Numbered from the stretch's first letter, positions 9,066 to 25,455 are shown. The stretch: DNA of 64,000 nt from Beijerinckiaceae bacterium (GCA_051646285.1 JBOFCU010000324.1:8407-72406), one strand, 5' to 3'. A program made the numbers and translations. The notes: generated from the letters alone by a model not told the origin.

Positions 9066-10595
9066 GTGAGCAAAAAACATCATCAAGTGGATCGTCATGC
9101 CCTTTTGACAGTCGCCCAGATGCGGGAGGCGGACCGGCTGACGATTGCCGGGGGCACGCCGGGGCTTGTGCTGATGGAGCGTGCCGGCGCTGCGGTGGCG
9201 GATGCTGCACGCCGGTTCCTGCCCCCGCATGGCCGGATTGCCGTTCTGTGCGGGCCCGGCAATAATGGCGGTGATGGTTTTGCGGCTGCCCGGATCCTGC
9301 ATGAATGCGGCCTTCCGGTACGGGTCTATTTGTCCGGAAACCGGGAGCAGATCAAAGGCGATGCGGCGCTGGCGCTTGCTGCATGGCCAGACATTGTGCA
9401 GCCTATCAGCGCTTTCACGCCGCCGGATGCAGATATCGTCATTGATGCGCTGTTTGGCGCGGGCCTCGTGCGGGCGATTGACGGTGGTCTGGCTGGCACA
9501 ATCCGTGCCGTTAACGCATGGCATGGGCCTGTCGTTGCAGTGGATGTGCCGTCAGGCGTGGATGGCGACAGCGGGCAGGTGCGTGGCATCGCGGTCAATG
9601 CGACCGCAACAGTGACCTTCTTTCGCCGCAAGCCGGGCCATGTGCTGATGCCGGGGCGGGCGATGTGCGGCGAGGTTCACGTTGCCGACATTGGCATTGC
9701 ACCTGCGGTGTTGATGCAAACTGGCATAGCGGCCCATGAGAACATGCCGGCCCTTTGGATGGATGCCTTCCCGCCGTTGCGGGAGGACGGGCATAAATTT
9801 CAGCGTGGTCATGCGCTGGTTGTGGCTGGCGGTCTGGAGGGTGTTGGCGCGCCACGCCTGAGCGCGCGTGCAGCGCTGCGGGCTGGCGCGGGGCTGGTAA
9901 CGATTGCAGCGCCGCCGGAGGCCTTGGCCGCCCATGCGGCGCGCGGGCCGGATGCCTTGATGGTACGATCTTGCGCCGATGCTGCGGCGCTGACCCGTCT
10001 GCTTTCCGATACGCGGCGCAACGTGTGTGTGATTGGCCCGGCGCTCGGGCTGGACGCATCGGCGCGCAACAAGGTGGATGCGGTTCTGCGCAGTGCGGCA
10101 GCCTGCGTGATCGATGCTGATGGGCTGACATTGCTGGCCGGACGCGCTGATGCCATTGCCCGTGCGGCGGGCCGCAAGGCTGTTGTTCTCACTCCCCATG
10201 ATGGCGAATTTGCCCGGCTGTTCGGGCCCAGCCGCGATGATGATGCCTTGAATCAGGAAGCAGCGGGTAATGCGTTGTTTTCCGATTCAAAATTGCAGCG
10301 TGCGCTGGCGGCGGCGCAACAGACGCAGGCGGTGATTGTGCTGAAAGGGGCGGATACCGTGATTGCAACGCCTGATGGCCGCGCGGCGATCAATGTCAAT
10401 GCGCCGCCATGGCTTGCGACGGCGGGTGCGGGGGATGTGCTGGCCGGTCTGATTGGCGGGTTACTGGCGCAGCAGATGCCGCCTTTTGAAGCGGCCTGTG
10501 CAGCAGTCTTTATGCATGGCGCCACAGCCGCGCAGTTCAGGCGCGGCATGATCGCGGATGATCTGGTTGATGCGCTGGCGTGGCCGTCTGCTTAA
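9066..10595 (+). CDS. nnr: Bifunctional NAD(P)H-hydrate repair enzyme (epimerase / ADP-dependent dehydratase)
   Basis: N-terminal YjeF-N domain (GPGNNGGDG) fused to a C-terminal carbohydrate-kinase-like domain (GAGDVLAG). The start is uncertain: GTG at 9066 or 9087, or ATG at 9120. Confidence 0.88.
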   Translation: MSKKHHQVDRHALLTVAQMREADRLTIAGGTPGLVLMERAGAAVADAARRFLPPHGRIAVLCGPGNNGGDGFAAARILHECGLPVRVYLSGNREQIKGDAALALAAWPDIVQPISAFTPPDADIVIDALFGAGLVRAIDGGLAGTIRAVNAWHGPVVAVDVPSGVDGDSGQVRGIAVNATATVTFFRRKPGHVLMPGRAMCGEVHVADIGIAPAVLMQTGIAAHENMPALWMDAFPPLREDGHKFQRGHALVVAGGLEGVGAPRLSARAALRAGAGLVTIAAPPEALAAHAARGPDALMVRSCADAAALTRLLSDTRRNVCVIGPALGLDASARNKVDAVLRSAAACVIDADGLTLLAGRADAIARAAGRKAVVLTPHDGEFARLFGPSRDDDALNQEAAGNALFSDSKLQRALAAAQQTQAVIVLKGADTVIATPDGRAAINVNAPPWLATAGAGDVLAGLIGGLLAQQMPPFEAACAAVFMHGATAAQFRRGMIADDLVDALAWPSA

Positions 10596-12109
10596 GGTTT
10601 TGATTCCGCCTGCATCGCCATGGCGCTGTTTCTTTTCTGATAAAATCTTAGAAACACGACACCAACAATCACGGCAAAGAAAAGCGCCACAGACACTTGC
10701 GCGCCAGCACCTTTGAGAAAAATCGACGGGTCGCCTTCCGAAATTGTCAAGGCGCGGCGGAAACTGACTTCAATGCGGTCGCCCAACACGGTGGCCAGCA
10801 GCAGGGGCGCAATATCGAATTTTGCCAGCCTGAGCGCATAACCTGCGATACCCGCTGCAATCATCACCCATAAATCGAAAGGTGACGCTTTGACGGAATA
10901 AACGCCGATGATGCAGATCAGCAAAATCATCGGCGCGAGATAGCCGTAGGGCAGACGCAGCATCGAAACGAAAAGGCTGACGAGCGGCAGATTCAAAATC
11001 ACCAGAATAAAATTGCCGATCAGCATGCTGGCGATCAGCCCCCAGAAAACCTCCGGATGCTGGGAAATCAGCATCGGGCCGGGTTGCACACCATGCACGG
11101 TCAACGCTGACAGCAGCACAGCCGTGACAGGAATGGCAGGGATACCAAGCACCAGCAGCGGGATCATCGCTGCGCCTGTGGTGGCATTGTTAGCCGTTTC
11201 CGGCCCGGCGACGCCGGCGACCGCGCCCTTGCCAAATTCTTCGGGATTCTTCGACAGGCTTTTTTCGACAGCATACGAAGCGAATGTCGAAACGATATGG
11301 CCCACGCCCGGCACGATGCCGAAAATAAATCCGATGCCTGAGCCGCGCAGCATCGGCATGGCGGAATCCTTCAATTCCTTTTTGGTCGGCACCATGTCGC
11401 GCAAGGCGGGAGCGCGCGGGCGGTCATTGATGCTTTGCCCAAATGACATCAGGATTTCAGAGACACCAAACAGGCCAATGGCCATGGCCGAAAAGCTCAG
11501 GCCATCGGTGAGATTGAGGCTACCGAATGTAAAGCGCGGCGTTGCGGTCAGCGGGTCCAGCCCGACCATCGCAATCAGCAAGCCCAGCACCACCATGGCA
11601 ATGGTCTTGATGAGCGGGCCATTGGCCGCAAACAGCGAGATCAGCAGGGCGGTTGTCAAAATTGTAAATTCTGCCGCCGGGCCAATTGACAGCATCGCAT
11701 CCGCGACCTTTGGCGCGACGAGCATCAGCCCGATCACCGACAAGACGCCGCCGACAAATGAGCCGAGTGCGGCGATGGTCAGCGCGCCGCCAGCGCGGCC
11801 CTTACGCGCCATCTCATAGCCGTCAATGCAGGTGACCACAGACGCGGCCTCACCGGGAATCCGCATCAAAATCGATGTTGTCGAGCCGCCATACATCGCG
11901 CCGTAGAAAATGCCCGACAGCATGATGACGGCCCCGGTGGGATCGAGCGTGAAGGTGAGGGGCAGCAACAGCGCCATGCCGGCCAGAGGGCCTAGTCCGG
12001 GCAGCACACCAACAATGGACCCCCAGAAACAGCCAATGAAACAGAACAGAATATATTTCGGCTGCATCGCCAGAGCGAGGCCATTCATGAGGTGATGAAA
12101 CGCATCCAT
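10592..12109 (-). CDS. tctA: Tripartite tricarboxylate transporter, large permease TctA
   Basis: ORF 10592-12238. The ATG at 12109 (MDAFHHLMNGLALAM...) lies 11 nt after the tctB stop. About 505 aa, polytopic, TctA-like throughout. Confidence 0.9.
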   Translation of the reverse strand: MDAFHHLMNGLALAMQPKYILFCFIGCFWGSIVGVLPGLGPLAGMALLLPLTFTLDPTGAVIMLSGIFYGAMYGGSTTSILMRIPGEAASVVTCIDGYEMARKGRAGGALTIAALGSFVGGVLSVIGLMLVAPKVADAMLSIGPAAEFTILTTALLISLFAANGPLIKTIAMVVLGLLIAMVGLDPLTATPRFTFGSLNLTDGLSFSAMAIGLFGVSEILMSFGQSINDRPRAPALRDMVPTKKELKDSAMPMLRGSGIGFIFGIVPGVGHIVSTFASYAVEKSLSKNPEEFGKGAVAGVAGPETANNATTGAAMIPLLVLGIPAIPVTAVLLSALTVHGVQPGPMLISQHPEVFWGLIASMLIGNFILVILNLPLVSLFVSMLRLPYGYLAPMILLICIIGVYSVKASPFDLWVMIAAGIAGYALRLAKFDIAPLLLATVLGDRIEVSFRRALTISEGDPSIFLKGAGAQVSVALFFAVIVGVVFLRFYQKRNSAMAMQAESKP

Positions 12110-12120
12110 GAAGACAGCCT

Positions 12121-12603
12121 TCAGCGAAACAGGATTTGCTCGATCAGGCCGTAGGGCAAACCCACGCCGAGCAGTTTGGTGAAAAACAGCCACAAGCCCG
12201 TGGCGCCAATGGCTGCCGCAGGCAGCGCAATCCGCCACGGTGTTTCACCCAGCAGAATGAAACCGGCGCTGAGGAACAGGAACGTGGCGAGAATGAAGCC
12301 GAGCGGTTCAAGGCCCAGGGCGCAAGCGATCAGCAGCGCCAGCGCCGTCAGTGGCTTGCGCATTGCGCCTGATGTTTCATGCGAAGCATCCGGCTTGCCC
12401 GCAGCCTGAAATGCAGCCTTGACCAGAATGACCAGACCGCACGCCATCAGCGCAAGGCCCAAAAAACCCGGAGCCGTGCCGGGGCCGGGGATGCCCGCTT
12501 CAGTGCCGGCCGGCAAACGCCACGCGAGCGTGGCGAGTGCCAGGCCGATCATCGACAGCGCTGCTGCAACCGTCAGTTCAATCCAGCGCTGGTAGCCCGT
12601 CAT
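12121..12603 (-). CDS. tctB: Tripartite tricarboxylate transporter, small membrane subunit TctB
   Basis: 160 aa with four hydrophobic helices. Sits between tctC and tctA and abuts the tctC stop at 12604. Confidence 0.8.
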   Translation of the reverse strand: MTGYQRWIELTVAAALSMIGLALATLAWRLPAGTEAGIPGPGTAPGFLGLALMACGLVILVKAAFQAAGKPDASHETSGAMRKPLTALALLIACALGLEPLGFILATFLFLSAGFILLGETPWRIALPAAAIGATGLWLFFTKLLGVGLPYGLIEQILFR

Positions 12604-13581
12604 TTATTGGGTCTTTTTCTCGATGCCGAGACCTTTGGCAATATCACCCAGAGCCTTGTACTCCGCATTGATCAGACCTGCGGTTGCCTTGCCGTCGAGC
12701 ACGCGTGCGGTCGCCCCCTGCTTGGCCATCACATCCTTGAACTTGTCGGATTTGGCGGCGTCGGAGAACACCTTTTCAAGCTCGGCAACAACTGCATCCG
12801 GGGTGCCTTTGGGCGCAATCAGGCCCCACCACAGCACCGTTTCTTCCTTGCCGAGATTGAGCGCATCCAGCCCCTTGGCCGCTGGCAGCGCCGGATTGTC
12901 GCCAGCCGATGTCAGGACGAGGCATTTCGCTTTGCCGGCCTGCACGTGCGGCAAAATGGGCGGCAGCGAGCCACCGTAGAAATCAACATGGCCACCCAGA
13001 AAATTCTTGGCCGTCTCGCCCGCGCCGCCAAACGGAATGGCGCGCACCTTCACGCCGCTGGCGGAGAAAATGCGCTCGGCCGCAAGCTGCATGGTGCCGC
13101 CGACGCCATCATTGCCATAGGTGTATTTCGCGCCCGGCTCCTTGAGCTTGGCGATAAATTCCTGCGCGTTAGCCGCCGGAAAATCAGGCTGCGTGCACAG
13201 CACATATGACGAAAATCCGATCGACATCACGGGCCGGTAATTTTCCGGCGTGTATACGACCTGAAGGCTGTGCGGGCTTGTCGTCAGCGGCGAATTCCAG
13301 ATGAAGGCGAGGGTGTAACCATCCGGCCTGCCGGTCACGAGTTGCGTGACCCCCAGTGTGCCGCCGCCACCGGCGCGATTCTCGATGACCACCTTCTGTT
13401 TGAGCACCGGCTCCACGATTTCCGCCAGAGCACGGGCAAAAACATCCGTGCCGCCGCCGGGCGGCGCAGGAACAATCATCGTGATGGGGCGAGTCGGATA
13501 GGTTTGTGCAGAGGCCGGCGCGGCGGCTATCACTGCTGCCGTTACAATAAATGTCGCCGATGCCAATGATTTCAAACGCAT
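12604..13581 (-). CDS. tctC: Tripartite tricarboxylate transporter substrate-binding protein (Bug/TctC family)
   Basis: ORF 12604-13623. The ATG at 13581 gives the signal peptide MRLKSLASATFIVTAAVIAAAPASA/QTYPTRPITMIVPAPPGGGTDV, the typical Bug-family N-terminus. Confidence 0.88.
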   Translation of the reverse strand: MRLKSLASATFIVTAAVIAAAPASAQTYPTRPITMIVPAPPGGGTDVFARALAEIVEPVLKQKVVIENRAGGGGTLGVTQLVTGRPDGYTLAFIWNSPLTTSPHSLQVVYTPENYRPVMSIGFSSYVLCTQPDFPAANAQEFIAKLKEPGAKYTYGNDGVGGTMQLAAERIFSASGVKVRAIPFGGAGETAKNFLGGHVDFYGGSLPPILPHVQAGKAKCLVLTSAGDNPALPAAKGLDALNLGKEETVLWWGLIAPKGTPDAVVAELEKVFSDAAKSDKFKDVMAKQGATARVLDGKATAGLINAEYKALGDIAKGLGIEKKTQ

Positions 13582-13721
13582 ATGGATGCTCCTGCAATTG
13601 CGTTCATGGTGCGCGCCAGCCATTTGCGGGGCTGCATGCTAACTATGTCTTCAATGCTTCGTTGCAGAACGCAAGGGAGTGTTTACGAAATGGTAACCAC
13701 AACCGCCTGACAGCAGTGTTC

Positions 13722-14555
13722 ATGCCTTACGTCGATACCCACGCGCATATTTTTCACCGGTCGCTGCCCATGATGCCGGGCCGGCGTTATTCGCCGTCGC
13801 AGGATTGCCCGCCGGAAATGTATCTGGCGCAGTTGTCCGCGCATGATGTGATGCTGGGCGTGCTGGTGCAGCCATCTTTTCTCGGCACCGACAACAGCTA
13901 CATGGTCGCGGCGCTGGACCGTTATGCGGACCGTCTGCGCGGCATTGCTGTCGTCGATCCAGCGGTTAGCGACGATGCCCTCGCGGTGATGCACGAGACC
14001 GGCGTTGTCGGCATCCGGTTCAACATGATCGGCCGCGACATGGCGGCACTGTCTGCGCCCGATACCCAAAGCCTTTTGAAACGCGTCGATTCGCTTGGCT
14101 GGCAGGTTGAGGTTCAGGCGCGCGGTTCTGATCTCCCGCAGGTTTTCAACAGTCTCTCGATTTTTCAGGGACCGGTGGTGATTGATCATTTTGGTTTGCC
14201 AGACCCGTCCCGCGGTATTGGTGATCCCGGATTTCGCGCGTTGCTGTCAGAAGGGGCGAAAGGGCGCACCTTCGTCAAAATGTCTGCGGGCTATCGCTGC
14301 GGCGGACAGGATGTTGCCAGTTGCGCCGGTGCGCTGCTGGCCGTGCTGGGCCCGCGCCGGCTTTTGTGGGGCAGTGACTGGCCGTTTACGCAGCATGAGG
14401 AAGGCCGTACCTACGCCACCATGGTGCAGGATTTGGTGCGGTGTGTGCCTGACAAGGCTGCACGTGATGCGATGGATCAGACAGCGATGGACCTGTTCGG
14501 CTTCACCCGCTCGCGGGACGCGCTGGCTGTGCCCCGCCGTGTGGCCGGTGCCTGA
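13722..14555 (+). CDS. Amidohydrolase-2 family metal-dependent hydrolase (LigI/lactonase-like)
   Basis: ORF 13551-14555. The ATG at 13722 gives MPYVDTHAHIF..., the usual HxH metal-site start of the family. It ends with the GSDWPF motif. Transcribed divergently from tctCBA. Confidence 0.8.
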   Translation: MPYVDTHAHIFHRSLPMMPGRRYSPSQDCPPEMYLAQLSAHDVMLGVLVQPSFLGTDNSYMVAALDRYADRLRGIAVVDPAVSDDALAVMHETGVVGIRFNMIGRDMAALSAPDTQSLLKRVDSLGWQVEVQARGSDLPQVFNSLSIFQGPVVIDHFGLPDPSRGIGDPGFRALLSEGAKGRTFVKMSAGYRCGGQDVASCAGALLAVLGPRRLLWGSDWPFTQHEEGRTYATMVQDLVRCVPDKAARDAMDQTAMDLFGFTRSRDALAVPRRVAGA

Positions 14556-14754
14556 GGTCTGTTGAACAGGATCAATCGTCAGGACACTGGCCGTTTCCCG
14601 CCAGCCCTGAAACAACTCCTTAAAGATTCATGGTTTATAGCTATCCCGAATTATGACCTGCCATCCAGGTCCATCACAGTCGGGTTGCGTAATGTCCAGC
14701 GTTGCACACAAATTATCCCTGCCGTCACAGGCCTATCGCCGCCAAGGCCGCGAT

Positions 14755-15885
14755 ATGGATCTCAATCGCCAAATTGAAAAGCTTTTCCGCCGCTTGCGGA
14801 TGGCTGTCGTGTATGGCGGTGACAAGAGCAAGGAAGGTGCGGTGATTGAGCCGACCACCAATCCGCGCTCATGGAAAAGCTACGAAGCGGTCGCAAAAGA
14901 TATTGCGAGTGCCATGCGCCGGCTGGGCTGCAAGAATATCGATCTGATGCCGGATGACATGCATCTTGGCGAGCGACTCAAGGACATAGATGCGCATATT
15001 GCCTGGTTGAATACGGGTGGTGTGCAAGGGCATTGCTCGGTTGCCCATGCGCCTGCCATGCTGGAATTGTTCGGCATTCCCTATATCGGCCATGATCCGA
15101 TGACGGCCGGTATTCTCGACAACAAACATGTGTTCAAGCGTCAGGTGCGTGCCGCTGGTATTCCCACTGCCAATTTTTATATCTGGCAGCCGGGTTCATC
15201 GCCGCAGGATCCAACCAAAGATCCGCATTTTGCCGAGAGTTTCGGCCATTCAAAGGGGCCGTTTATTGTGAAGCCCGTATCGGGCCGGGCCTCGCTGCAT
15301 GTCAGCTTTGTTGAAAAAATTGGTGATGTCGCAGAGGCGGTGCGCAAGGTTTACGATATTACGCGCAACCATGTGCTGATCGAATCTTATCTGGGTGGGC
15401 GCGAATTTTGCGTTGCCGTCGCAGGGCCTGTTATCTGGCGCCATGGCCGTGCCGAGCGGCTGGATGGCCCATTTGTTTTTTCTGCGCTCGAGCGTGTGCT
15501 GGACAAAGACGAAAAGATTTTCACATCCATGGATGTGAAGCCTATCACAGGTGAGCGCGCGTTTGTGCTGGATCCGGCCAAAGAGGGTGTATTGTGCGAC
15601 CGGCTGACCAAACTGGCGCGCGATGTCTTCACACAGCTCGGCGTTGAAACGCTCATCCGCCTCGATGTCCGGTCTGATGCTGATGGCAATCTTTTTGTTC
15701 TGGAAGCCAATCCGAAGCCGGATCTCAAGGCCCCGGCGCCGGGTGTTACGAGTCTCGTCAGTATTGGTCTGCCGCAGCATGGCATGACCTACGACGACCT
15801 TATCATGTCTGTTTTTGCTGATCGGGTTGACGTGCTGCTCAGTGAGCGGCGCGGCACTGCCGATCGTCTGACCCGTCTGCTCTGA
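14755..15885 (+). CDS. ATP-grasp enzyme of the D-alanine--D-alanine ligase family (non-canonical context)
   Basis: ORF 14653-15885. The ATG at 14755 is preceded by AAGG. Features: MAVVYGGDKSKE start, central ATP-grasp region (FIVKPVSGRASLHV, LIESYLGGREF) and C-terminal RLDVR...LFVLEANPKP. First gene of a four-gene cluster. Confidence 0.8.
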   Translation: MDLNRQIEKLFRRLRMAVVYGGDKSKEGAVIEPTTNPRSWKSYEAVAKDIASAMRRLGCKNIDLMPDDMHLGERLKDIDAHIAWLNTGGVQGHCSVAHAPAMLELFGIPYIGHDPMTAGILDNKHVFKRQVRAAGIPTANFYIWQPGSSPQDPTKDPHFAESFGHSKGPFIVKPVSGRASLHVSFVEKIGDVAEAVRKVYDITRNHVLIESYLGGREFCVAVAGPVIWRHGRAERLDGPFVFSALERVLDKDEKIFTSMDVKPITGERAFVLDPAKEGVLCDRLTKLARDVFTQLGVETLIRLDVRSDADGNLFVLEANPKPDLKAPAPGVTSLVSIGLPQHGMTYDDLIMSVFADRVDVLLSERRGTADRLTRLL

Positions 15886-15902
15886 TATTTGAAAGATCAC
15901 TG

Positions 15903-18284
15903 ATGCAACCGTCATCCGACCTTTCTCTTGGGCGCAAACTGATTGACACGGCGGCGATGCTTGTCGTCGCCATCGTGTCGATGATTTTGCTGATTTATGT
16001 GTCGTTTGGCGAAGCCAAGCGGACGTATGAAAAATTCCAGATCGAAAAGCTTGTGGCTCAGGGGCAGGTCATTCAAAGCTCGATCGAGACGTTTGTCCGT
16101 CCCGGTCTTCCGATCCAGCAATTCGTCGGGTTCAACGCGCTGGCCGAACCGATGGTGAAGCAGGATTTGCTGATCGACGCGATTTCTGCTTACAGCATGG
16201 AGAGTGAGCAGGTTTTCTCCTCAGGCGAGCAGCGCGGCTACCTGCTGCAAAATGCAGAATCGATTTATAAAACCGCTGATGAAGGCGCAGAAGTGCGACG
16301 GACAGGTGAGTTGCTGCAGGTTCATCTGCCGCTTCGCAACCGCTTCGAACAGGTGGGTGTGCTTGTTCTCTCGGTTCCCAATGCAAAAATTGCTGAACGT
16401 GTGCAGGAGGCATTTAAGCCTCTCACCATTGCAGCGATCGTTGGTTGTCTTTCTTTTGCGCTCCTGGTTTTCGTCACCTCGTCGTCATCGTCTGTCCGCT
16501 CGCGTGCGCGATGGGTGGCCGGCGGTTTTGCCGCAACCTTTATCATCACCAGCGTTTTTGTGGTGTCCACGCTGGTGGATGTTTATTCGCAGGGTGCGCA
16601 GGCGCGCGCCAAGTCACTCGCTGACAGCCTTGGCCAGCGGCTTGATGATCTCGTGGCGTACAATGTCAATCTCGATGATATTACCGGCATCATCAAACTG
16701 TTTGGCGACTACAAGCGGCTCAACCCCGATTTGAGATCGGCAGCATTGATTGTCGATGGCAAGGTGCGTGCCCACCCAGATGCAGACCGCCGCGGGTCCG
16801 ACTGGGATTCAGTGCCGGACGATTATGAGTATACTGTCACGATTTCACAGCCGGATTCGGCACGCGTTGTTGAAATCAAGGTGGCACTGCCGCGCAATAT
16901 CGTCTTCAAGCAGGTTTTGCGCAGTATCAAGAATGCATCGGCCTTGTTCGTAGCGTCTGGGTTCTTCGCCGCGATCTTCATGGGACTGGCGCGATCGCTG
17001 CAAAATCTTGCGCAATCGCGTGGCTCAAACTGGTCGCTGCGGGAAGAAAGCGCGACCATCAACCTGGTCAAGCCAGTCTTTTTTCTGGCCGTATTTGCCG
17101 AACATTTGAGCTACGCATTTTTGCCAAGTGCCATGCAGGGGCTTGCCGCTGCGAGCAAGCTGTCGCCAGCCTTCGCTGCGCTTCCGTTCGTTGCCTATTA
17201 TGCGATGTTTGCCATATCGCTGATTCCGTCAGGGCATCTGGAGCGCCGTGTCGGCCCGCGCGCGCTCATTCTTGGCGGTTTGCTGCTGGCGAGCGGTGCT
17301 CTGGCCATGCTGGCACTGCGCGGCGATTTCTGGTCGGCTGTGGCAGCGCGCGCTGTTGCGGGCATCGGGCAGGGTGCATTGTTTATCGGCGTGCAGGCTT
17401 ATGTTCTGGCCAACTCATCGCCTGATTACCGCACCCGTGCGGGCAGTTCCATCGTGTTCGGATTTCAGGCTGGTATGATCGCTGGCATGGCCATCGGATC
17501 GCTGCTTGTTTCCTACATGGATGCATCAGGCGTGTTCTATCTGGGCGCTGTCGTGGCGATCATTACGGCCATTTATGCCGTGCTGGTGCTGCCGCTCACC
17601 GTGACTGCAACTGAAAAAAGCATTGCGCTGACATCCGCTGCGCGTGACGTCTTTCGCATGATGCGTGACAAGACATTTGCCCGCACAATTTTTCTGGTCG
17701 GCATGCCGGCAAAAGCTGTGCTGACAGGCGTGCTGCTGTTTGGCCTGCCCTTGCTGTTGACGCAGCAGGGATTCGTCAAAGAAGACATTGGGCAGATCAC
17801 GATGATTTATGCGGGAGCTGTTATCATCGCATCGCATTATGCCTCAGCGCGCGCGGACAAGAATAAAAATACCGAAGCCATCGTTTTTCAAGGCAGCTGC
17901 ATGACTGCTGCCGGTCTGATCGTGATGTCGGCCGCCGGCTTCGTCAACTGGAATACGAGCAATGCGACAGGTGTTATTCTGATTGTGCTCGGTGCAGTGA
18001 TTGTTGGTTTCGCCCATGGCTTTATCAATGCGCCGATTGTGACGCATGTCACACATACGCGCGCGGCTGATGATGTCGGCATGATGGGCGCTGCTGCTGC
18101 TTACCGCCTGATGGAACGTATCGGACATGTTATTGGCCCGATGATTATTGGCCAGTTGTTCATGTATTTTGGGCAGTCCTGGCAAGTGCTTGGCGGTGTC
18201 GCTATCGTCATCTTTATTTTTGGTGCCTTGTTTCTCTCGCCGGGAGGCCAGCAGACGCGCACCGAAGACAACCAGTTGGCATGA
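15903..18284 (+). CDS. MFS transporter core fused to a ~380-aa N-terminal extension carrying two predicted periplasmic domains
   Basis: 793 aa. The N-terminal part has four hydrophobic helices (about aa 17-37, 173-195, 203-225, 346-366) bracketing two hydrophilic segments of about 130 and 120 aa. An RSRAR loop lies between helices 2 and 3 (positive-inside). Residues ~385-790 look like a 12-helix MFS core. Starts 17 nt after the upstream stop. Confidence 0.8.
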   Translation: MQPSSDLSLGRKLIDTAAMLVVAIVSMILLIYVSFGEAKRTYEKFQIEKLVAQGQVIQSSIETFVRPGLPIQQFVGFNALAEPMVKQDLLIDAISAYSMESEQVFSSGEQRGYLLQNAESIYKTADEGAEVRRTGELLQVHLPLRNRFEQVGVLVLSVPNAKIAERVQEAFKPLTIAAIVGCLSFALLVFVTSSSSSVRSRARWVAGGFAATFIITSVFVVSTLVDVYSQGAQARAKSLADSLGQRLDDLVAYNVNLDDITGIIKLFGDYKRLNPDLRSAALIVDGKVRAHPDADRRGSDWDSVPDDYEYTVTISQPDSARVVEIKVALPRNIVFKQVLRSIKNASALFVASGFFAAIFMGLARSLQNLAQSRGSNWSLREESATINLVKPVFFLAVFAEHLSYAFLPSAMQGLAAASKLSPAFAALPFVAYYAMFAISLIPSGHLERRVGPRALILGGLLLASGALAMLALRGDFWSAVAARAVAGIGQGALFIGVQAYVLANSSPDYRTRAGSSIVFGFQAGMIAGMAIGSLLVSYMDASGVFYLGAVVAIITAIYAVLVLPLTVTATEKSIALTSAARDVFRMMRDKTFARTIFLVGMPAKAVLTGVLLFGLPLLLTQQGFVKEDIGQITMIYAGAVIIASHYASARADKNKNTEAIVFQGSCMTAAGLIVMSAAGFVNWNTSNATGVILIVLGAVIVGFAHGFINAPIVTHVTHTRAADDVGMMGAAAAYRLMERIGHVIGPMIIGQLFMYFGQSWQVLGGVAIVIFIFGALFLSPGGQQTRTEDNQLA

Positions 18285-18294
18285 GTTTGCGTCC

Positions 18295-19521
18295 ATGAAA
18301 ATCACACGCCGTTCCATTGTTGCCGTTCCTGCTTTGATAGCTGCGCAAAATGCCTTTGCCCGCTCGGATGAGCCTACCGGCGGCGCTATGCGCGCCACAA
18401 CGCTTGATGCAAAGCCCAATTTTGATAGCTGGTTCAAGGTTTTTGACAGTGTGCATGCGAAATGGAAAGTGCTGGAAACACCAGGAAATCCTGACCGTGT
18501 CACATTGCGCCCGCGCCGCCTTGCCGCGGGGCAAGGCCGCAAGATTTTGATGATTTATCCACGGCCATCATCCGCCTATGATATTGCCGTCACCAAAATC
18601 ATGAATGTTTTTGAGGACAAATTGCTTGATGTCGAGATTATTGTTGAAAACTATCGCTTGAATCCGGCGCTCGGCAAGGCAGTTCTGGAACGTGCGCAGC
18701 GTGATGGATGCGCGCTCATCATGTCCATGGGGTCGGAAACGACGGCATGGCTTTATGAAGTCTACAATGGCGGCCGTATTCCGGTTGTCACAGTGTGTTC
18801 GAAAGATCCGGTCGTTCTTGGGCAAATTCCGAGCTACCGCGTTGGCTCCGGAACCAATTTTGCTTTTACCTCGCTGAACATGCCGATCAATGTGCAGATG
18901 GCATATGTGCAGGAGTTGAAGCCGCGCTTGCGGAATATTGCTGTGCTCGTGGATTCGCGCAATGTCAGCGCCATCGAAACGCAGGCCAAGCCTGTAGCTG
19001 ATTACGCAAAAACACGCAGCATTCGTGTGCTTGAGCTTGCTGTTCAAAATCCGGATAATGCGCGTGTTGAGCTTGAGCGCATGGTGCGTGATGCTACCAC
19101 GCAAATGGCCAAAAATGATCCTGATCTCAGCAATAGCATTTTCTGGGTCACTGGCAGTACGTCTGTTTTCAAGGAAATCGGCACGGTGAATGCCAATGCC
19201 GGGCGTGCGGCTGTTGTGAGTGTGGTGCCTGAAATCGTCCGTGGTGGCGATGATAGTGCTGTTATTTCGATTGGCATCAGCTTTGAATCCAATGCCCATT
19301 TGGCGGCTGTTTATGCAGCCGATGTTATTCGCGGCCGCTCACAGATCGGTGAATTGAAGGTTGGTGTCGTGTCTCCGCCAGACATTGCCATCAGTTTTCG
19401 AAAACTGCGCGATATCGGTATGACACTGCCGTTGTCGTTTTTTGAAGCGGCCAACACTGTCTACGATTATGATGGCAAGGCCGTTCGTATTGATGGTGTC
19501 ACTGTTGGCAAGAACAGCTGA
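18295..19521 (+). CDS. Periplasmic binding protein (ABC-type substrate-binding fold) with no cognate ABC permease or ATPase
   Basis: ORF 18148-19521. The ATG at 18295 gives the Tat-like signal MKITRRSIVAVPALIAAQNAFA. The body resembles the type-I periplasmic-binding / ABC_sub_bind family. Starts 10 nt after the MFS stop. Confidence 0.8.
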   Translation: MKITRRSIVAVPALIAAQNAFARSDEPTGGAMRATTLDAKPNFDSWFKVFDSVHAKWKVLETPGNPDRVTLRPRRLAAGQGRKILMIYPRPSSAYDIAVTKIMNVFEDKLLDVEIIVENYRLNPALGKAVLERAQRDGCALIMSMGSETTAWLYEVYNGGRIPVVTVCSKDPVVLGQIPSYRVGSGTNFAFTSLNMPINVQMAYVQELKPRLRNIAVLVDSRNVSAIETQAKPVADYAKTRSIRVLELAVQNPDNARVELERMVRDATTQMAKNDPDLSNSIFWVTGSTSVFKEIGTVNANAGRAAVVSVVPEIVRGGDDSAVISIGISFESNAHLAAVYAADVIRGRSQIGELKVGVVSPPDIAISFRKLRDIGMTLPLSFFEAANTVYDYDGKAVRIDGVTVGKNS

Positions 19522-19554
19522 CAGTCATGTTAAGTGCCTGAACGAGGCGGGGAA

Positions 19555-22212
19555 ATGAAATCAGCGACCCACATCATGCTTGGGCAGAATGCTCTGGACA
19601 GACAGGTATTTTCTCATGCCGATATTCACGCATCTGGGGTTTCGCAAGCCTATGCCGATGCACTTGATGCTGTGCTGGCAAATGGAGATGACCGCGTTAT
19701 TTCGGCAAGCATTCGTAGTCTTATTGATGCGTTACAGATTGAAAATTCAACATCGCTGATTGTGCTTTCCAATGATACACAAGAAATTACCTGCGCTATT
19801 GATGGTGAGCGCCGTGCGGAGCAGTTTGCGACCTGTGAATTGATCGAAATTGCGCCAGCGCATGGTGCCGCTGTTCACACGTTTGATGCCTCCAATCAAC
19901 GAATACCCGTTGCTGTTGCCATGCGGGCGCTTGCACTGGGCTTCCGGGCCTGTGTGGCAGCGGCAATTTCCAGCTCGTCAGGCCGCCGCTGTGGTGTCGT
20001 CGTTGTTCTTTTGCGCCATCCCTTGCCAGATGGTCATCCTTGCATTGTAGAAATCGCCAAAATCGGTCATTTTGCCACGACCCTGATGCAGACACGCGAA
20101 TATATTGCGCGCGCTCGCAAAGCGGATACGCAGCTTGCCGGACTGGCTGCGACTGTTCCCGGTGTTTTATATCAGCGCGTTGTGCGGCCAAATGGCGAAA
20201 TTCGTTACACATATATCAGCGAAAATGCTGTTGATCTTTTTGGTGTAACGGCAGAGCGCATTCTCACTGATCCCGAGGCACTTTTTCAAAGTTACAGTGC
20301 CGATTATCGCCAGTCATTCCGGCAAAAACTGTTGCAAGCCTCGAAAGACCTCACATTGTGGGATGTTGAGGCAACGATTGTTCGTCCTGATGGGAAGGTG
20401 CGTTACACACATGCCATTGCCAAGCCGACGCGTGAGCCTGACGGCTCTGTGATCTGGACAGGCGTCATCCTTGATGCGACGCGCATCAAGGAAGCGGAAT
20501 TGATGGCCTCTGCTGCCGAGACACGTACACGCAAGGCAATTGTTGAAAGCCTCTCGCAGGGGCTTTTGATGTTCAACAAGGACGATGTGCTGACAGTCAA
20601 GAATAGTCATTTTGATAAATTGTATCCAGCGCTGGCTGATATTGCCGTACCGGGCGCAAAGTATATCGACCTGTTGCATGCGGAATTGAATGCCTCGACA
20701 AACCCGCATGTCTTGCATTCCGATATCATTGATGAGTTGACGGATCGTCTTACGCGTCACGGGCATGGACATCTTGTCTATGAGCGTGCGATGGCGGGTG
20801 ATCGCTTTATTTTGGTGAATGAATATCGTACACCGGAACTTGAAACCGTGGTGCTTTATACGGACATCAGTGAATTGAAGATGCGCGAAAAGCGTATTGA
20901 GCATCTGGCGCACCATGATGTGCTGACGGGGCTTGCTAACAGGGTTCTTTTCCGCAGCAATCTTGAACATGCGATATTTGATGCTGCGCAGCATCAGCTC
21001 AATGTTGCAGTGCTGTGCCTCGATCTTGACCGCTTCAAGTCCGTCAATGACACGCTCGGACATCACGTCGGGGATTTGCTCCTGAAGCAGGTTGCGCAAC
21101 GTATTCGTGATTGTGTGCGCGAGGATGATCTGGCTTGCCGGCTCGGCGGTGATGAATTCGCGATTATCATGCGCAGTGTCAATGATCCGTTGACTGTTAC
21201 GACGCTGGCATGGCGGCTATTGCAGGCAATGGCGCAGCCCTTTACGGTTGACGGTCATACTATCGTATCGGGAACAAGTATTGGTATTGCGATTGGTTTG
21301 CAGGATGGTGATGATCCTGATGGTCTTTTGAAGAATGCTGATCTTGCGCTTTACCGTGCCAAATCCGATGGGCGTGGTACATTCCGCTTTTTTGAAGCTG
21401 AAATGGATCAAAAGGCTCAGACCCGCCGATTGCTGGAAATTTCCTTGCGTGCAGCTGTGGTGCGGCAGGAAATCGAAGTGCATTATCAGCCGCTGGTTGA
21501 TGTTCACACAGCGCAGATTGTGGGTGTTGAAGCTCTCGTGCGCTGGAATCGCATGGGTGCGGGTTATATACCGCCGCTGGAATTTATTCCGCTGGCTGAA
21601 GAGACCGGGCTCATTAATGATATTGGTATTTTTGTCTTGAAGAAGGCGTGCGCTGACGCGGCTAAATGGCCCAATGATATTCGTGTTGCTGTGAATATTT
21701 CGCCGGCTCAATTCCGCAATACGGCGTTTGCCTCTGTCGTGAAGGGCATTCTCGAACAGGCTGGCTTGTCACCCAACAGGCTGGAGCTTGAAATTACAGA
21801 ATCCATGCTGCTGCGGAACTCTGAGACCAATCTGGCGATTTTGCGGGAACTCAAGGAGCAAGGAATTCGTATTTCCATGGATGATTTCGGCACGGGCTAT
21901 TCATCGCTTGGCAATCTTCGCTCATTTCCGTTCGATAAAATCAAGATTGATAAGTCTTTCATTGGCGATCTCAATAAAAGCGTTGATGCCGCTGCTATCA
22001 TCCGCGCGGTGCTGTCTCTTGGGCGCAGTCTGGGAATGACCACGACGGCAGAAGGTGTTGAAACGCGCGATCAGCTTGCCTATTTGCGTGCGGAGGGCTG
22101 TGTGGAAGTTCAGGGGCATTATTATGCCAGTGCGATGAATGCCAAGGGCATCAGCACAATTCTGGAAAATTCGAATGCCCGCGTGATGCTGCCGGCGTCT
22201 CAATCCATGTAA
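19555..22212 (+). CDS. Cytosolic PAS-PAS-GGDEF-EAL c-di-GMP turnover protein with an unassigned N-terminal domain
   Basis: ATG at 19555 is preceded by GAGGCGGGG. No hydrophobic helix. PAS-like region around GVLYQRVVRPNGEIRYTYISENA. GGDEF motif intact (CRLGGDEFAII). EAL domain intact (EALVRW, DDFGTGYSSL). Confidence 0.88.
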   Translation: MKSATHIMLGQNALDRQVFSHADIHASGVSQAYADALDAVLANGDDRVISASIRSLIDALQIENSTSLIVLSNDTQEITCAIDGERRAEQFATCELIEIAPAHGAAVHTFDASNQRIPVAVAMRALALGFRACVAAAISSSSGRRCGVVVVLLRHPLPDGHPCIVEIAKIGHFATTLMQTREYIARARKADTQLAGLAATVPGVLYQRVVRPNGEIRYTYISENAVDLFGVTAERILTDPEALFQSYSADYRQSFRQKLLQASKDLTLWDVEATIVRPDGKVRYTHAIAKPTREPDGSVIWTGVILDATRIKEAELMASAAETRTRKAIVESLSQGLLMFNKDDVLTVKNSHFDKLYPALADIAVPGAKYIDLLHAELNASTNPHVLHSDIIDELTDRLTRHGHGHLVYERAMAGDRFILVNEYRTPELETVVLYTDISELKMREKRIEHLAHHDVLTGLANRVLFRSNLEHAIFDAAQHQLNVAVLCLDLDRFKSVNDTLGHHVGDLLLKQVAQRIRDCVREDDLACRLGGDEFAIIMRSVNDPLTVTTLAWRLLQAMAQPFTVDGHTIVSGTSIGIAIGLQDGDDPDGLLKNADLALYRAKSDGRGTFRFFEAEMDQKAQTRRLLEISLRAAVVRQEIEVHYQPLVDVHTAQIVGVEALVRWNRMGAGYIPPLEFIPLAEETGLINDIGIFVLKKACADAAKWPNDIRVAVNISPAQFRNTAFASVVKGILEQAGLSPNRLELEITESMLLRNSETNLAILRELKEQGIRISMDDFGTGYSSLGNLRSFPFDKIKIDKSFIGDLNKSVDAAAIIRAVLSLGRSLGMTTTAEGVETRDQLAYLRAEGCVEVQGHYYASAMNAKGISTILENSNARVMLPASQSM

Positions 22213-22214
22213 AA

Positions 22215-22240
22215 ATCCCCGCGCTTTCGGGCGCGGGGAT
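22215..22240. terminator. Hairpin terminator between the convergent GGDEF-EAL gene and catalase
   Basis: Stem atccccgcgc (22215-22224), loop tttcgg, stem gcgcggggat (22231-22240). The A-run at 22211-22215 gives a U-run for the minus-strand (catalase) transcript. The tail on the plus side is weaker. Confidence 0.6.
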
Positions 22241-25365: not shown

Positions 25366-25455
25366 GGAAGGGTGGCCGAGTGGTTTAAGGCAGCGGTCTT
25401 GAAAACCGCCGTGGGGGCAACTCCACCGTGGGTTCGAATCCCACCCCTTCCGCCA
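25366..25455 (+). tRNA. tRNA-Ser (anticodon TGA), CCA encoded
   Basis: Hand-folded cloverleaf. Acceptor GGAAGGG/CCCTTCC; anticodon stem GCGGT/ACCGC with loop CTTGAAA; long variable arm; T-arm GTGGG-TTCGAAT-CCCAC; discriminator G plus CCA. Confidence 0.93.

Follow-up and report, generated by a model that had tools for sequence, protein, structure and literature searches.

A conserved gene trio with a Cache-like MFS protein and putatively interchangeable signalling partners

What could a Ddl-like ligase, a membrane carrier with periplasmic domains, a binding protein and a soluble cyclic di-GMP (c-di-GMP) enzyme be doing together? This question is raised by four closely packed genes in a 64-kb stretch of chromosomal DNA from a Beijerinckiaceae metagenome-assembled genome (MAG; GCA_051646285.1 JBOFCU010000324.1:8407-72406), hereafter the window, to which all positions refer unless a locus is named. 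An earlier note, made from the sequence alone, had suggested a signalling module in which a ligase product is exported or sensed through a protein of the major facilitator superfamily (MFS) and the binding protein, and is coupled to c-di-GMP turnover. The genes are as follows:

14692..15885, plus strand: gene 1, cytoplasmic Ddl-like ATP-grasp ligase, 397 amino acids (aa), with PF07478 and PF13535; the open reading frame (ORF) opens at 14653
15903..18284, plus strand: gene 2, 793-aa membrane protein with a 4-helix transmembrane (TM) extension and a 12-TM MFS core (Pfam MFS_1 and AlphaFold 2, AF2)
18295..19521, plus strand: gene 3, PF04392 periplasmic solute-binding protein, 408 aa (Pfam)
19555..22212, plus strand: gene 4, soluble GAF-like/PAS_3/PAS_7/GGDEF/EAL protein, 885 aa (Pfam, NCBIfam)

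The tight same-strand packing and the domain identities described in the earlier note agree with the ORF coordinates (14653/14692-15885, 15903-18284, 18295-19521 and 19555-22212, spaced by 17, 10 and 33 nt) and with the Pfam calls for all four genes. We find that genes 1 to 3 form a trio that is widely kept together, and that it is accompanied by a signalling protein whose output domain varies from lineage to lineage.

The trio and its partners across genomes

In about 90% of 80 species-level loci the three genes have the same order and orientation. These loci come from a neighbourhood set with one genome per species, scanned with the gene 2 family, of which the best 80 of 167 relatives were analysed. 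They cover Beijerinckiaceae, Methylobacterium, Bosea, Rhabdaerophilum, Devosia, Kiloniellales, Pelagibius, Inquilinaceae, Stellaceae, Geminicoccaceae, Hyphomicrobiaceae and others, and most of them are MAGs. Gene 3 immediately follows gene 2 in 73 of the 74 loci with enough sequence, and gene 1 immediately precedes gene 2 in 66 of 74 (anywhere in the locus, 75/80). A PAS_3 protein of the gene 4 type is found in 67 of the 80 loci, rising to 50 of 55 where at least 5 kb is available on both sides, and 49 of these 55 hold the complete four-gene set. The earlier note had named failure to co-occur as the finding that would overturn its proposal; the families instead stay together at these frequencies. 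Because this co-occurrence is so strong, comparative evidence argues that the four families are functionally linked as one conserved sensory module, with the gene 3 and gene 2 pair as its likely core. Profile and literature searches placed the cluster in no characterised pathway, in line with the earlier note, which knew of no characterised system of this composition.

Unsupervised clustering of all ORFs in the 80 loci gave no further widely conserved family besides a receiver-only regulator, antisense shadow ORFs aside. Cultured carriers of the module are Rhabdaerophilum calidifontis and Pelagibius sp. Alg239-R121. In Bosea sp. AAP35 and Bosea massiliensis (L013 and L015), the trio is rearranged as MFS protein, binding protein, ligase, and at one locus (L070) the MFS gene stands by itself.

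The partner protein is recognised by one domain in particular:

20125..20514, plus strand: PAS_3 domain of gene 4 (residues 191-320), common to the alphaproteobacterial partners of the trio

Three partner types are seen. The first has the GAF-like/PAS_3/PAS_7/GGDEF/EAL architecture of gene 4 and usually lies downstream on the same strand. The second is a soluble GAF-PAS_3-PAS_7-HisKA-HATPase kinase, usually upstream and divergent, and the third comprises PAS_3 hybrid kinases with REC and Hpt domains. Whatever the output domain, the PAS_3 domains of the partners in the 67 loci are 56-77% identical to that of gene 4, and over residues 99-449 gene 4 shares 41% identity with the GAF-PAS-PAS half of the kinase found in the same position in a Rhodospirillales genome. 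In 22 loci a receiver-only response regulator stands beside the kinase, with no DNA-binding domain nearby. Since PAS_3 stays this similar across architectures, the conserved unit is the trio plus one sensor module, with outputs that swap among histidine kinase, hybrid kinase, GGDEF-EAL protein and nucleotide cyclase. As for the coupling to c-di-GMP proposed earlier, the signalling partner is indeed conserved, whereas the c-di-GMP output is a local variant, replaced elsewhere by kinases or cyclases.

The cyclases are found in distant relatives. The order ligase, MFS protein, PF04392 protein, dCache-Guanylate_cyc protein has two independent distant metagenomic occurrences. A further distant locus encodes a ligase, a dCache-cyclase, TctC and a hybrid kinase, followed by an MFS protein fused to a binding protein, and at L084 the ligase, MFS protein, PF04392 protein and a dCache protein precede an OEP/TolC-like gene (13259-14821 of that locus). 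At one distant locus a PF04392 protein accompanies an MFS-dCache protein, and the ligase is absent. The distant-lineage proteins are 45-46% (gene 1) and 46-47% (gene 3) identical to those of the window, and one of these lineages is SAR324/Lambdaproteobacteria-like, as judged by a neighbouring PRPP synthetase.

The four gene products

Gene 2 is the most unusual of the four products. Its parts, as delimited by hydropathy and by structural and profile comparison, are:

16008..16421, plus strand: periplasmic Cache/PDC-like domain 1, residues ~36-173, between TM1 (17-35) and TM2 (174-192)
16584..16934, plus strand: periplasmic Cache/PDC-like domain 2, residues ~228-344, between TM3 (209-227) and TM4 (345-363)
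17037..18233, plus strand: MFS core, residues ~379-777 (Pfam, Foldseek)

Pfam recognises MFS_1 alone (residues 394-729; 107.5 bits against a cut-off of 33.4), and no Pfam Cache model matches the protein. More than 150 full-length homologues are known, and an NCBI protein matches the window's product at 100% identity. The full-length AF2 model has a predicted local distance difference test (pLDDT) score of 84 and a predicted template modelling (pTM) score of 0.80; residues 1-385 modelled by themselves reach a pLDDT of 87. Twice in both models a TM helix leads into a long periplasmic helix, a short helix and a 5-6-stranded sheet before a TM helix returns, and in the full-length model a 12-helix MFS fold follows. 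Domain 1 consists of a long helix, a helix and six strands, and domain 2 repeats the order of these elements. Four hydrophobic helices are also found by hydropathy in the ~380-aa extension, with Arg/Lys-rich loops after TM2 and TM4. Because of these loops, the positive-inside rule places both extension domains in the periplasm. The extension with two periplasmic domains described in the earlier note is in this way borne out by hydropathy, the positive-inside rule and AF2, which agree.

When the extension is searched with Foldseek, nearly all matches are Cache/PDC domains of kinases and chemoreceptors (the WalK sCache, dCache ligand-binding domains, PctA-D, McpU, Mlp24, KinD and CqsR). Scores are modest, with two matches only at E <0.001 and a best single-domain TM-score of 0.57. 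The modelled fold thus suggests a sensor-like extension made of two Cache/PDC-like domains. Profile comparison of domain 1 with domain 2 gives a weak match in register (hhalign E 0.0017, probability 15%). An internal duplication of the extension was considered, at which the fold hints; the sequence match is not significant, and we do not retain it. For the MFS core, the top Foldseek matches are MdfA, NorA, VMAT, SotB, Spns2 and DgoT, with TM-scores of 0.7-0.8 on the target.

An exhaustive, profile-free search with the extension alone returned 332 cluster representatives. Those listed at full length measure ~780-840 aa and are all joined to an MFS core, so the extension appears specific to this MFS family and is almost only found joined to the core. 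Longer relatives carry further domains. In P0241 (L081:8001-11795) and P0203 (L086:7001-11008), a PF12974 (PhnD-like) binding-protein domain precedes the extension and MFS core, and a signal peptide with an extra membrane helix leaves this domain in the periplasm. One of these two fusions also has a peptidoglycan-binding domain, and an orphan TctC gene adjoins both. P0121, P0127, P0134 and P0136 (for example L082:8001-11513), of ~1170-1197 aa, have a doubled extension, with four periplasmic domains before the MFS core. They had been candidates for gene 1-gene 2 fusions, which is ruled out since their additional 370 residues repeat the extension. In P0266 (L085:7001-11731; 1576 aa), a dCache domain and a multi-helix C-terminal region lie behind the MFS core; no output domain is recognised in it, and no ligase is encoded nearby. 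The P0266 contig also encodes a TLC ATP/ADP translocase, a hint of an intracellular lifestyle. Finally, genes 2 and 3 form a single 1199-codon ORF in a Stellaceae MAG (L030:5262-8861), with neither a stop nor a canonical start between them and with the signal peptide as the linker. Two other candidate fusions of genes 2 and 3, in L034 and L056, proved to be overlapping genes in different frames.

Gene 3 matches the Pfam family ABC_sub_bind (PF04392) at 33 bits, the cut-off being 25.9. A phmmer search of gene 3 against the PDB gave no match; the profile of the gene 3 family reaches 6HNI (E 3e-10) and 3LKV, both solved PF04392 proteins, and the ligands recorded for solved members of the family are aromatic amino acids. 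The signal peptide (residues 1-23, 18295-18363) has a Tat-like RR motif, TRRSIV. Export in the folded state by Tat would be unusual for a binding protein. A similar RR motif is seen in the signal peptides of 10 of 28 aligned homologues. No ABC permease or ATPase and no mur or fts gene turned up in a scan of the long ORFs between ~4.4 and 33.4 kb of the window, and both the binding protein and the ligase are accordingly outside their usual surroundings, as had been noticed before. In the 80 loci an ABC-ATPase-like ORF never lies next to the cluster (0/80) and is found anywhere within at most 10 kb on each side in 13.

The ligase is the third member of the trio. Gene 1 had been taken to start at 14755, which is an internal Met. 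The start is moved upstream because a conserved RRxGR motif precedes this Met and because homologues measure 396-400 aa; 14692 is the most likely position (397 aa, matching the NCBI record), failing which 14653. Pfam assigns the product to Dala_Dala_lig_C (PF07478; 56.7 bits, cut-off 24) and ATP-grasp_4 (PF13535), and its closest solved relative is Escherichia coli DdlB (2DLN, E 2e-13). Among the families compared it is closest to true D-Ala-D-Ala ligases. All NCBIfam Ddl and Van models nevertheless score far under their cut-offs (at best 81.5 bits vs 243). In the HMMER alignment with 2DLN, the equivalents of DdlB K97, K144, E180, E187, K215, R255, D257, E270, N272 and S281-L282 are kept. Across 19 family members the equivalents of the ATP, Mg and catalytic residues are mostly invariant or nearly so (the DdlB sequence in this alignment agrees with 2DLN over the portion aligned to it); at the K215 position most members have K or R, and a few H or S. 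The Ddl triad E15-S150-Y216 is not kept in the family: S150 is replaced by Ala and Y216 by a near-invariant Pro, and the E15 position is variable. The omega-loop is longer by 16-17 residues and includes a family motif, ERVL..DE.IFTSMD..PIT, in a region where the alignment is uncertain. Because the ATP, Mg and acyl-phosphate residues are kept, the substrate triad is lost and the curated scores are missed, gene 1 is probably an active ligase with substrates other than those of Ddl. No mur, fts or ddl family is conserved near it in the 80 loci.

Gene 4 consists of a degenerate GAF-like N-terminus, then PAS_3, PAS_7, GGDEF (167.6 bits) and EAL (238.4 bits) domains. Its translation reads REDDLACRLGGDEF, followed by EAL, ELEITES, DDFGTGYSS, KIDKSF, EGVE and QG. 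Its signature motifs, namely the RxxD I-site, GGDEF and those for EAL catalysis, are intact, and on this basis both parts look functional. There is no convincing membrane segment: the Kyte-Doolittle maximum of 1.72 falls inside the GAF-like region, in keeping with the unanchored enzyme described in the earlier note.

Uptake, reception or export

How might these proteins work together? The reading we put first, at a little under an even chance, is an MFS transporter or receptor that depends on a binding protein, handles an amino-acid-like ligand and is linked to a ligase in the cytoplasm and to a sensor. The gene 3 protein would capture the ligand in the periplasm and dock on the two Cache/PDC-like domains of gene 2. 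The 12-helix MFS core would then translocate the ligand or, acting as a receptor, shift its conformation. In the cytoplasm, the Ddl-like ligase (gene 1) would conjugate the ligand in an ATP-dependent manner, and the soluble GAF-PAS_3-PAS_7 sensor (gene 4) would respond to the ligand itself, to what the ligase makes or to the transporter's state. In the window genome, gene 4 would turn the sensed state into synthesis or breakdown of c-di-GMP. Other lineages would feed the same input into a histidine kinase paired with a receiver-only regulator, into a hybrid kinase, or into a membrane dCache nucleotide cyclase. Genes 2 and 3 are the tightest and most widely kept pair, and together with the fusions of binding domains to the MFS protein this points to uptake or reception. 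Export of the ligase product, which the earlier note had allowed for, is possible and not favoured on these grounds; uptake or reception is preferred because binding proteins are known to partner importers and sensors but are not known to partner exporters, and because the gene 2-3 pair survives without the ligase.

Several observations weigh against this reading. The nearest MFS structures (MdfA, NorA, VMAT and SotB) are mostly exporters or antiporters. A transducer that senses the periplasm, as in the dCache-cyclase variants, fits an exported signal equally well, and the OEP gene adjoining the L084 cluster would favour export if it is linked. The two Bosea loci have no PAS-type transducer within 10 kb on each side (L013) or within 10 kb upstream and 4.7 kb downstream (L015). 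The single ORF joining genes 2 and 3 in L030 could be a natural fusion or an assembly error of that single MAG.

A more far-reaching reading is possible, though less likely than not. It is a three-part system in which a 4-helix module bears two Cache-like domains for docking or sensing, the carrier is a 12-helix MFS core, and the binding protein is of family PF04392 (or PF12974 when fused). Together with the Ddl-like ligase, this system would pass on a dedicated signal, an amino-acid conjugate, to second-messenger or two-component outputs that can be exchanged for one another.

The strongest alternative, which we regard as possible though rather doubtful, is an autocrine or quorum-type loop, close to the proposal of the earlier note. 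The ligase would make a dipeptide-like or other amino-acid conjugate and the MFS protein would export it, gene 3 and the Cache-like domains then binding the product in the periplasm; sensing would take place in the periplasm for the dCache cyclase variants, or in the cytoplasm at the site of synthesis for the PAS variants. The DHA1 type of the closest exporter and antiporter structures fits such a loop, as do the periplasm-facing dCache transducers that go with the trio in distant lineages and the one OEP neighbour. Pairs of ATP-grasp ligase and MFS exporter are moreover a known design in gene clusters for dipeptide antibiotics, for example bacilysin BacD/BacE. However, binding proteins are not known as partners of exporters, the gene 2-3 pair is kept without the ligase (L081 included), the MFS protein is fused to binding-protein domains, and a cytoplasmic PAS sensor would have no need of export.

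An envelope or metabolic role is unlikely. Here the trio would salvage or build a D-amino-acid or peptide-type compound, for example one derived from the cell wall or destined for the surface, and the transducer would merely regulate it or be co-regulated. The closeness of gene 1 to true D-Ala-D-Ala ligases would suit this role, as would the amino acids bound by solved PF04392 proteins and the varying position and strand of the transducer, which is absent beside the Bosea clusters. Yet a signalling protein is the partner in nearly every lineage, kinase partners precede a receiver-only regulator with no DNA-binding domain nearby, and the MFS protein itself bears sensor-like domains, with a dCache domain fused to it in one relative. 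Other metabolic genes are not conserved in the neighbourhood. Chance juxtaposition of four unrelated, closely spaced genes is highly improbable: each family is common in Alphaproteobacteria and the unit is not delimited by promoter, terminator or transcript data, but the trio recurs in its order and strand in the alphaproteobacterial loci and in distant phyla, and a PAS_3 partner of 56-77% identity is present in 50 of the 55 fully covered loci.

The uptake or reception reading may be compared with known systems. To our knowledge, binding-protein-dependent secondary transport is known for few carrier folds, namely TRAP, TTT and, since 2025, TAXI-GltS. As in TRAP (DctPQM), TTT (TctCBA) and TAXI-GltS (PMC12344293), the binding-protein gene adjoins that of a secondary carrier and has no ABC partner. 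The combination of a 4-helix accessory part, a 12-helix carrier and a binding protein also recalls TRAP (DctQMP) and TTT (TctBAC), a resemblance in layout only. The module's carrier is an MFS protein rather than one of the DctM, TctA or GltS fold, and its binding protein is PF04392 (PF12974 if fused) rather than DctP, TAXI or TctC; by these Pfam assignments (PF04392 for gene 3, MFS_1 for gene 2) it belongs to neither TRAP nor TTT. Unlike in all three systems, its accessory helices bear two Cache-like periplasmic domains, and both transport and its dependence on the binding protein are putative here. The terms 'MFS' and 'major facilitator' are absent from the TAXI-GltS paper (PMC12344293), and neither this gene set nor an MFS protein that depends on a binding protein turned up in the literature searched.

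A second comparison is with sensors assisted by binding proteins or transporters. Transporters or binding proteins serve as signalling inputs in LuxP-LuxQ, TorT-TorS, ChvE-VirA, UhpC-UhpB and DctA-DcuS. The SLC5/STAC kinases CbrA and CrbS are of the transporter-sensor type (PMC9100948). Periplasmic domains of the Cache/PDC type, flanked by membrane helices, would be a further feature common to the module and such systems. In the module, however, the Cache-like domains are on the transporter and not on a kinase or cyclase, the alphaproteobacterial transducer is soluble with no membrane contact of its own, and a dedicated ATP-grasp ligase is included.

With ligases of the Ddl/VanA and BacD/BacE types the module has in common an ATP-grasp fold with Ddl catalytic residues and a ligase gene directly upstream of an MFS gene. 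It differs from them in having no cell-wall or antibiotic-biosynthesis context, and in encoding a binding protein and a transducer as well. In the RimABK system of Pseudomonas, the ATP-grasp ligase RimK is under the control of the EAL protein RimA and of c-di-GMP, so that there too an ATP-grasp ligase and a c-di-GMP enzyme share a cluster. Gene 1 nevertheless resembles Ddl and not RimK, the RimA model reaches 88 bits where 430 are required, RimABK has neither an MFS nor a binding protein, and the module's c-di-GMP enzyme is replaceable by kinases or cyclases. All parts of the module are thus members of known superfamilies; their combination, and the family of extension-bearing MFS proteins with a dedicated binding protein, appears undescribed.

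If the uptake or reception reading is true, the largest transporter superfamily would gain a new class, an MFS version of binding-protein-dependent transport that brings along Cache-like domains for docking. Soluble PAS kinases and PAS-GGDEF-EAL proteins are otherwise orphans that mostly respond to unknown signals, and for them the module would be a defined input device that is conserved in many genomes. Because one trio is connected to c-di-GMP enzymes in some lineages and to histidine kinases or nucleotide cyclases in others, it would show how outputs are exchanged in nature while the sensory apparatus stays the same. The cultured carriers make the module open to direct test, and the two Bosea strains offer the trio with no adjacent transducer.

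Base composition, flanks and neighbouring genes

The cluster stands out by its base composition. From gene 1 (0.554) the G+C content falls along a gradient to 0.515 in gene 3 and 0.510 in gene 4, against a window mean of 0.583 (standard deviation 0.024) and 0.55-0.61 in the flanking genes. Genes 3 and 4 (18295-22212) are the lowest-G+C part of the 64 kb and contain its lowest 2.66-kb stretch, and G+C at third codon positions (GC3) is 0.50 in the dip vs 0.64-0.70 in the flanks. The dip reported in the earlier note is therefore real, but its size was overstated at ~48% against more than 60%. The lateral origin suggested there is not upheld for recent times: no such dip is seen in the 22 orthologous loci checked, and the upstream pair of TctC and amidohydrolase genes is syntenic in related families (L001, L004-L006 and L008-L011), which together argue that the cluster as a whole was not acquired recently. 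Low G+C content in genes 3 and 4 is peculiar to the window genome.

The features bordering the cluster are:

10592-13623, minus strand: likely TTT operon TctCBA, with TctA at 10592-12238, an ORF in the TctB position at 12121-12603 and TctC at 12604-13623
13551-14555, plus strand: Amidohydro_2 gene, back to back with TctC
14556..14691, plus strand: non-coding, presumed promoter and leader of the cluster, bounded by the amidohydrolase stop at 14555 and the probable start of gene 1
22215..22240, either strand: terminator-like hairpin, bidirectional, flanked by the gene 4 and catalase stop codons
22264-23745, minus strand: catalase gene, convergent with the cluster

The gap upstream of the cluster, put at ~200 nt in the earlier note, is instead ~136 nt with the start at 14692, or 97 nt with that at 14653. 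A sigma-70 consensus scan scored no site in 14556..14691, and an Rfam scan of the whole window found two tRNAs only and no leader RNA family for the cluster. Within the cluster, sigma-70 and terminator consensus scans were uninformative, the terminal hairpin alone being prominent. This hairpin, directly 3' of the gene 4 stop, has a G+C-rich 11-bp stem and a UUCG loop, and the 61-nt stretch that contains it has a folding energy of -25.2 kcal/mol (z = -2.75). Since the stem lies between both stops, it is common to gene 4 and the convergent catalase gene, as the earlier note had seen.

The TctB assignment follows from the position and size of the 160-aa middle ORF only, with no profile check, and the longest ORFs of TctC and Amidohydro_2 overlap by ~70 nt at their 5' ends. 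On the catalase side, the flank is not conserved among relatives. Other genes around the cluster include glnA, metG, holB and a D-Ala-D-Ala carboxypeptidase gene. Divergent from the catalase gene is a gene for an aquaporin-type MIP channel (plus strand, up to 24735), followed by tRNA-Ser(UGA) at 25366-25455.

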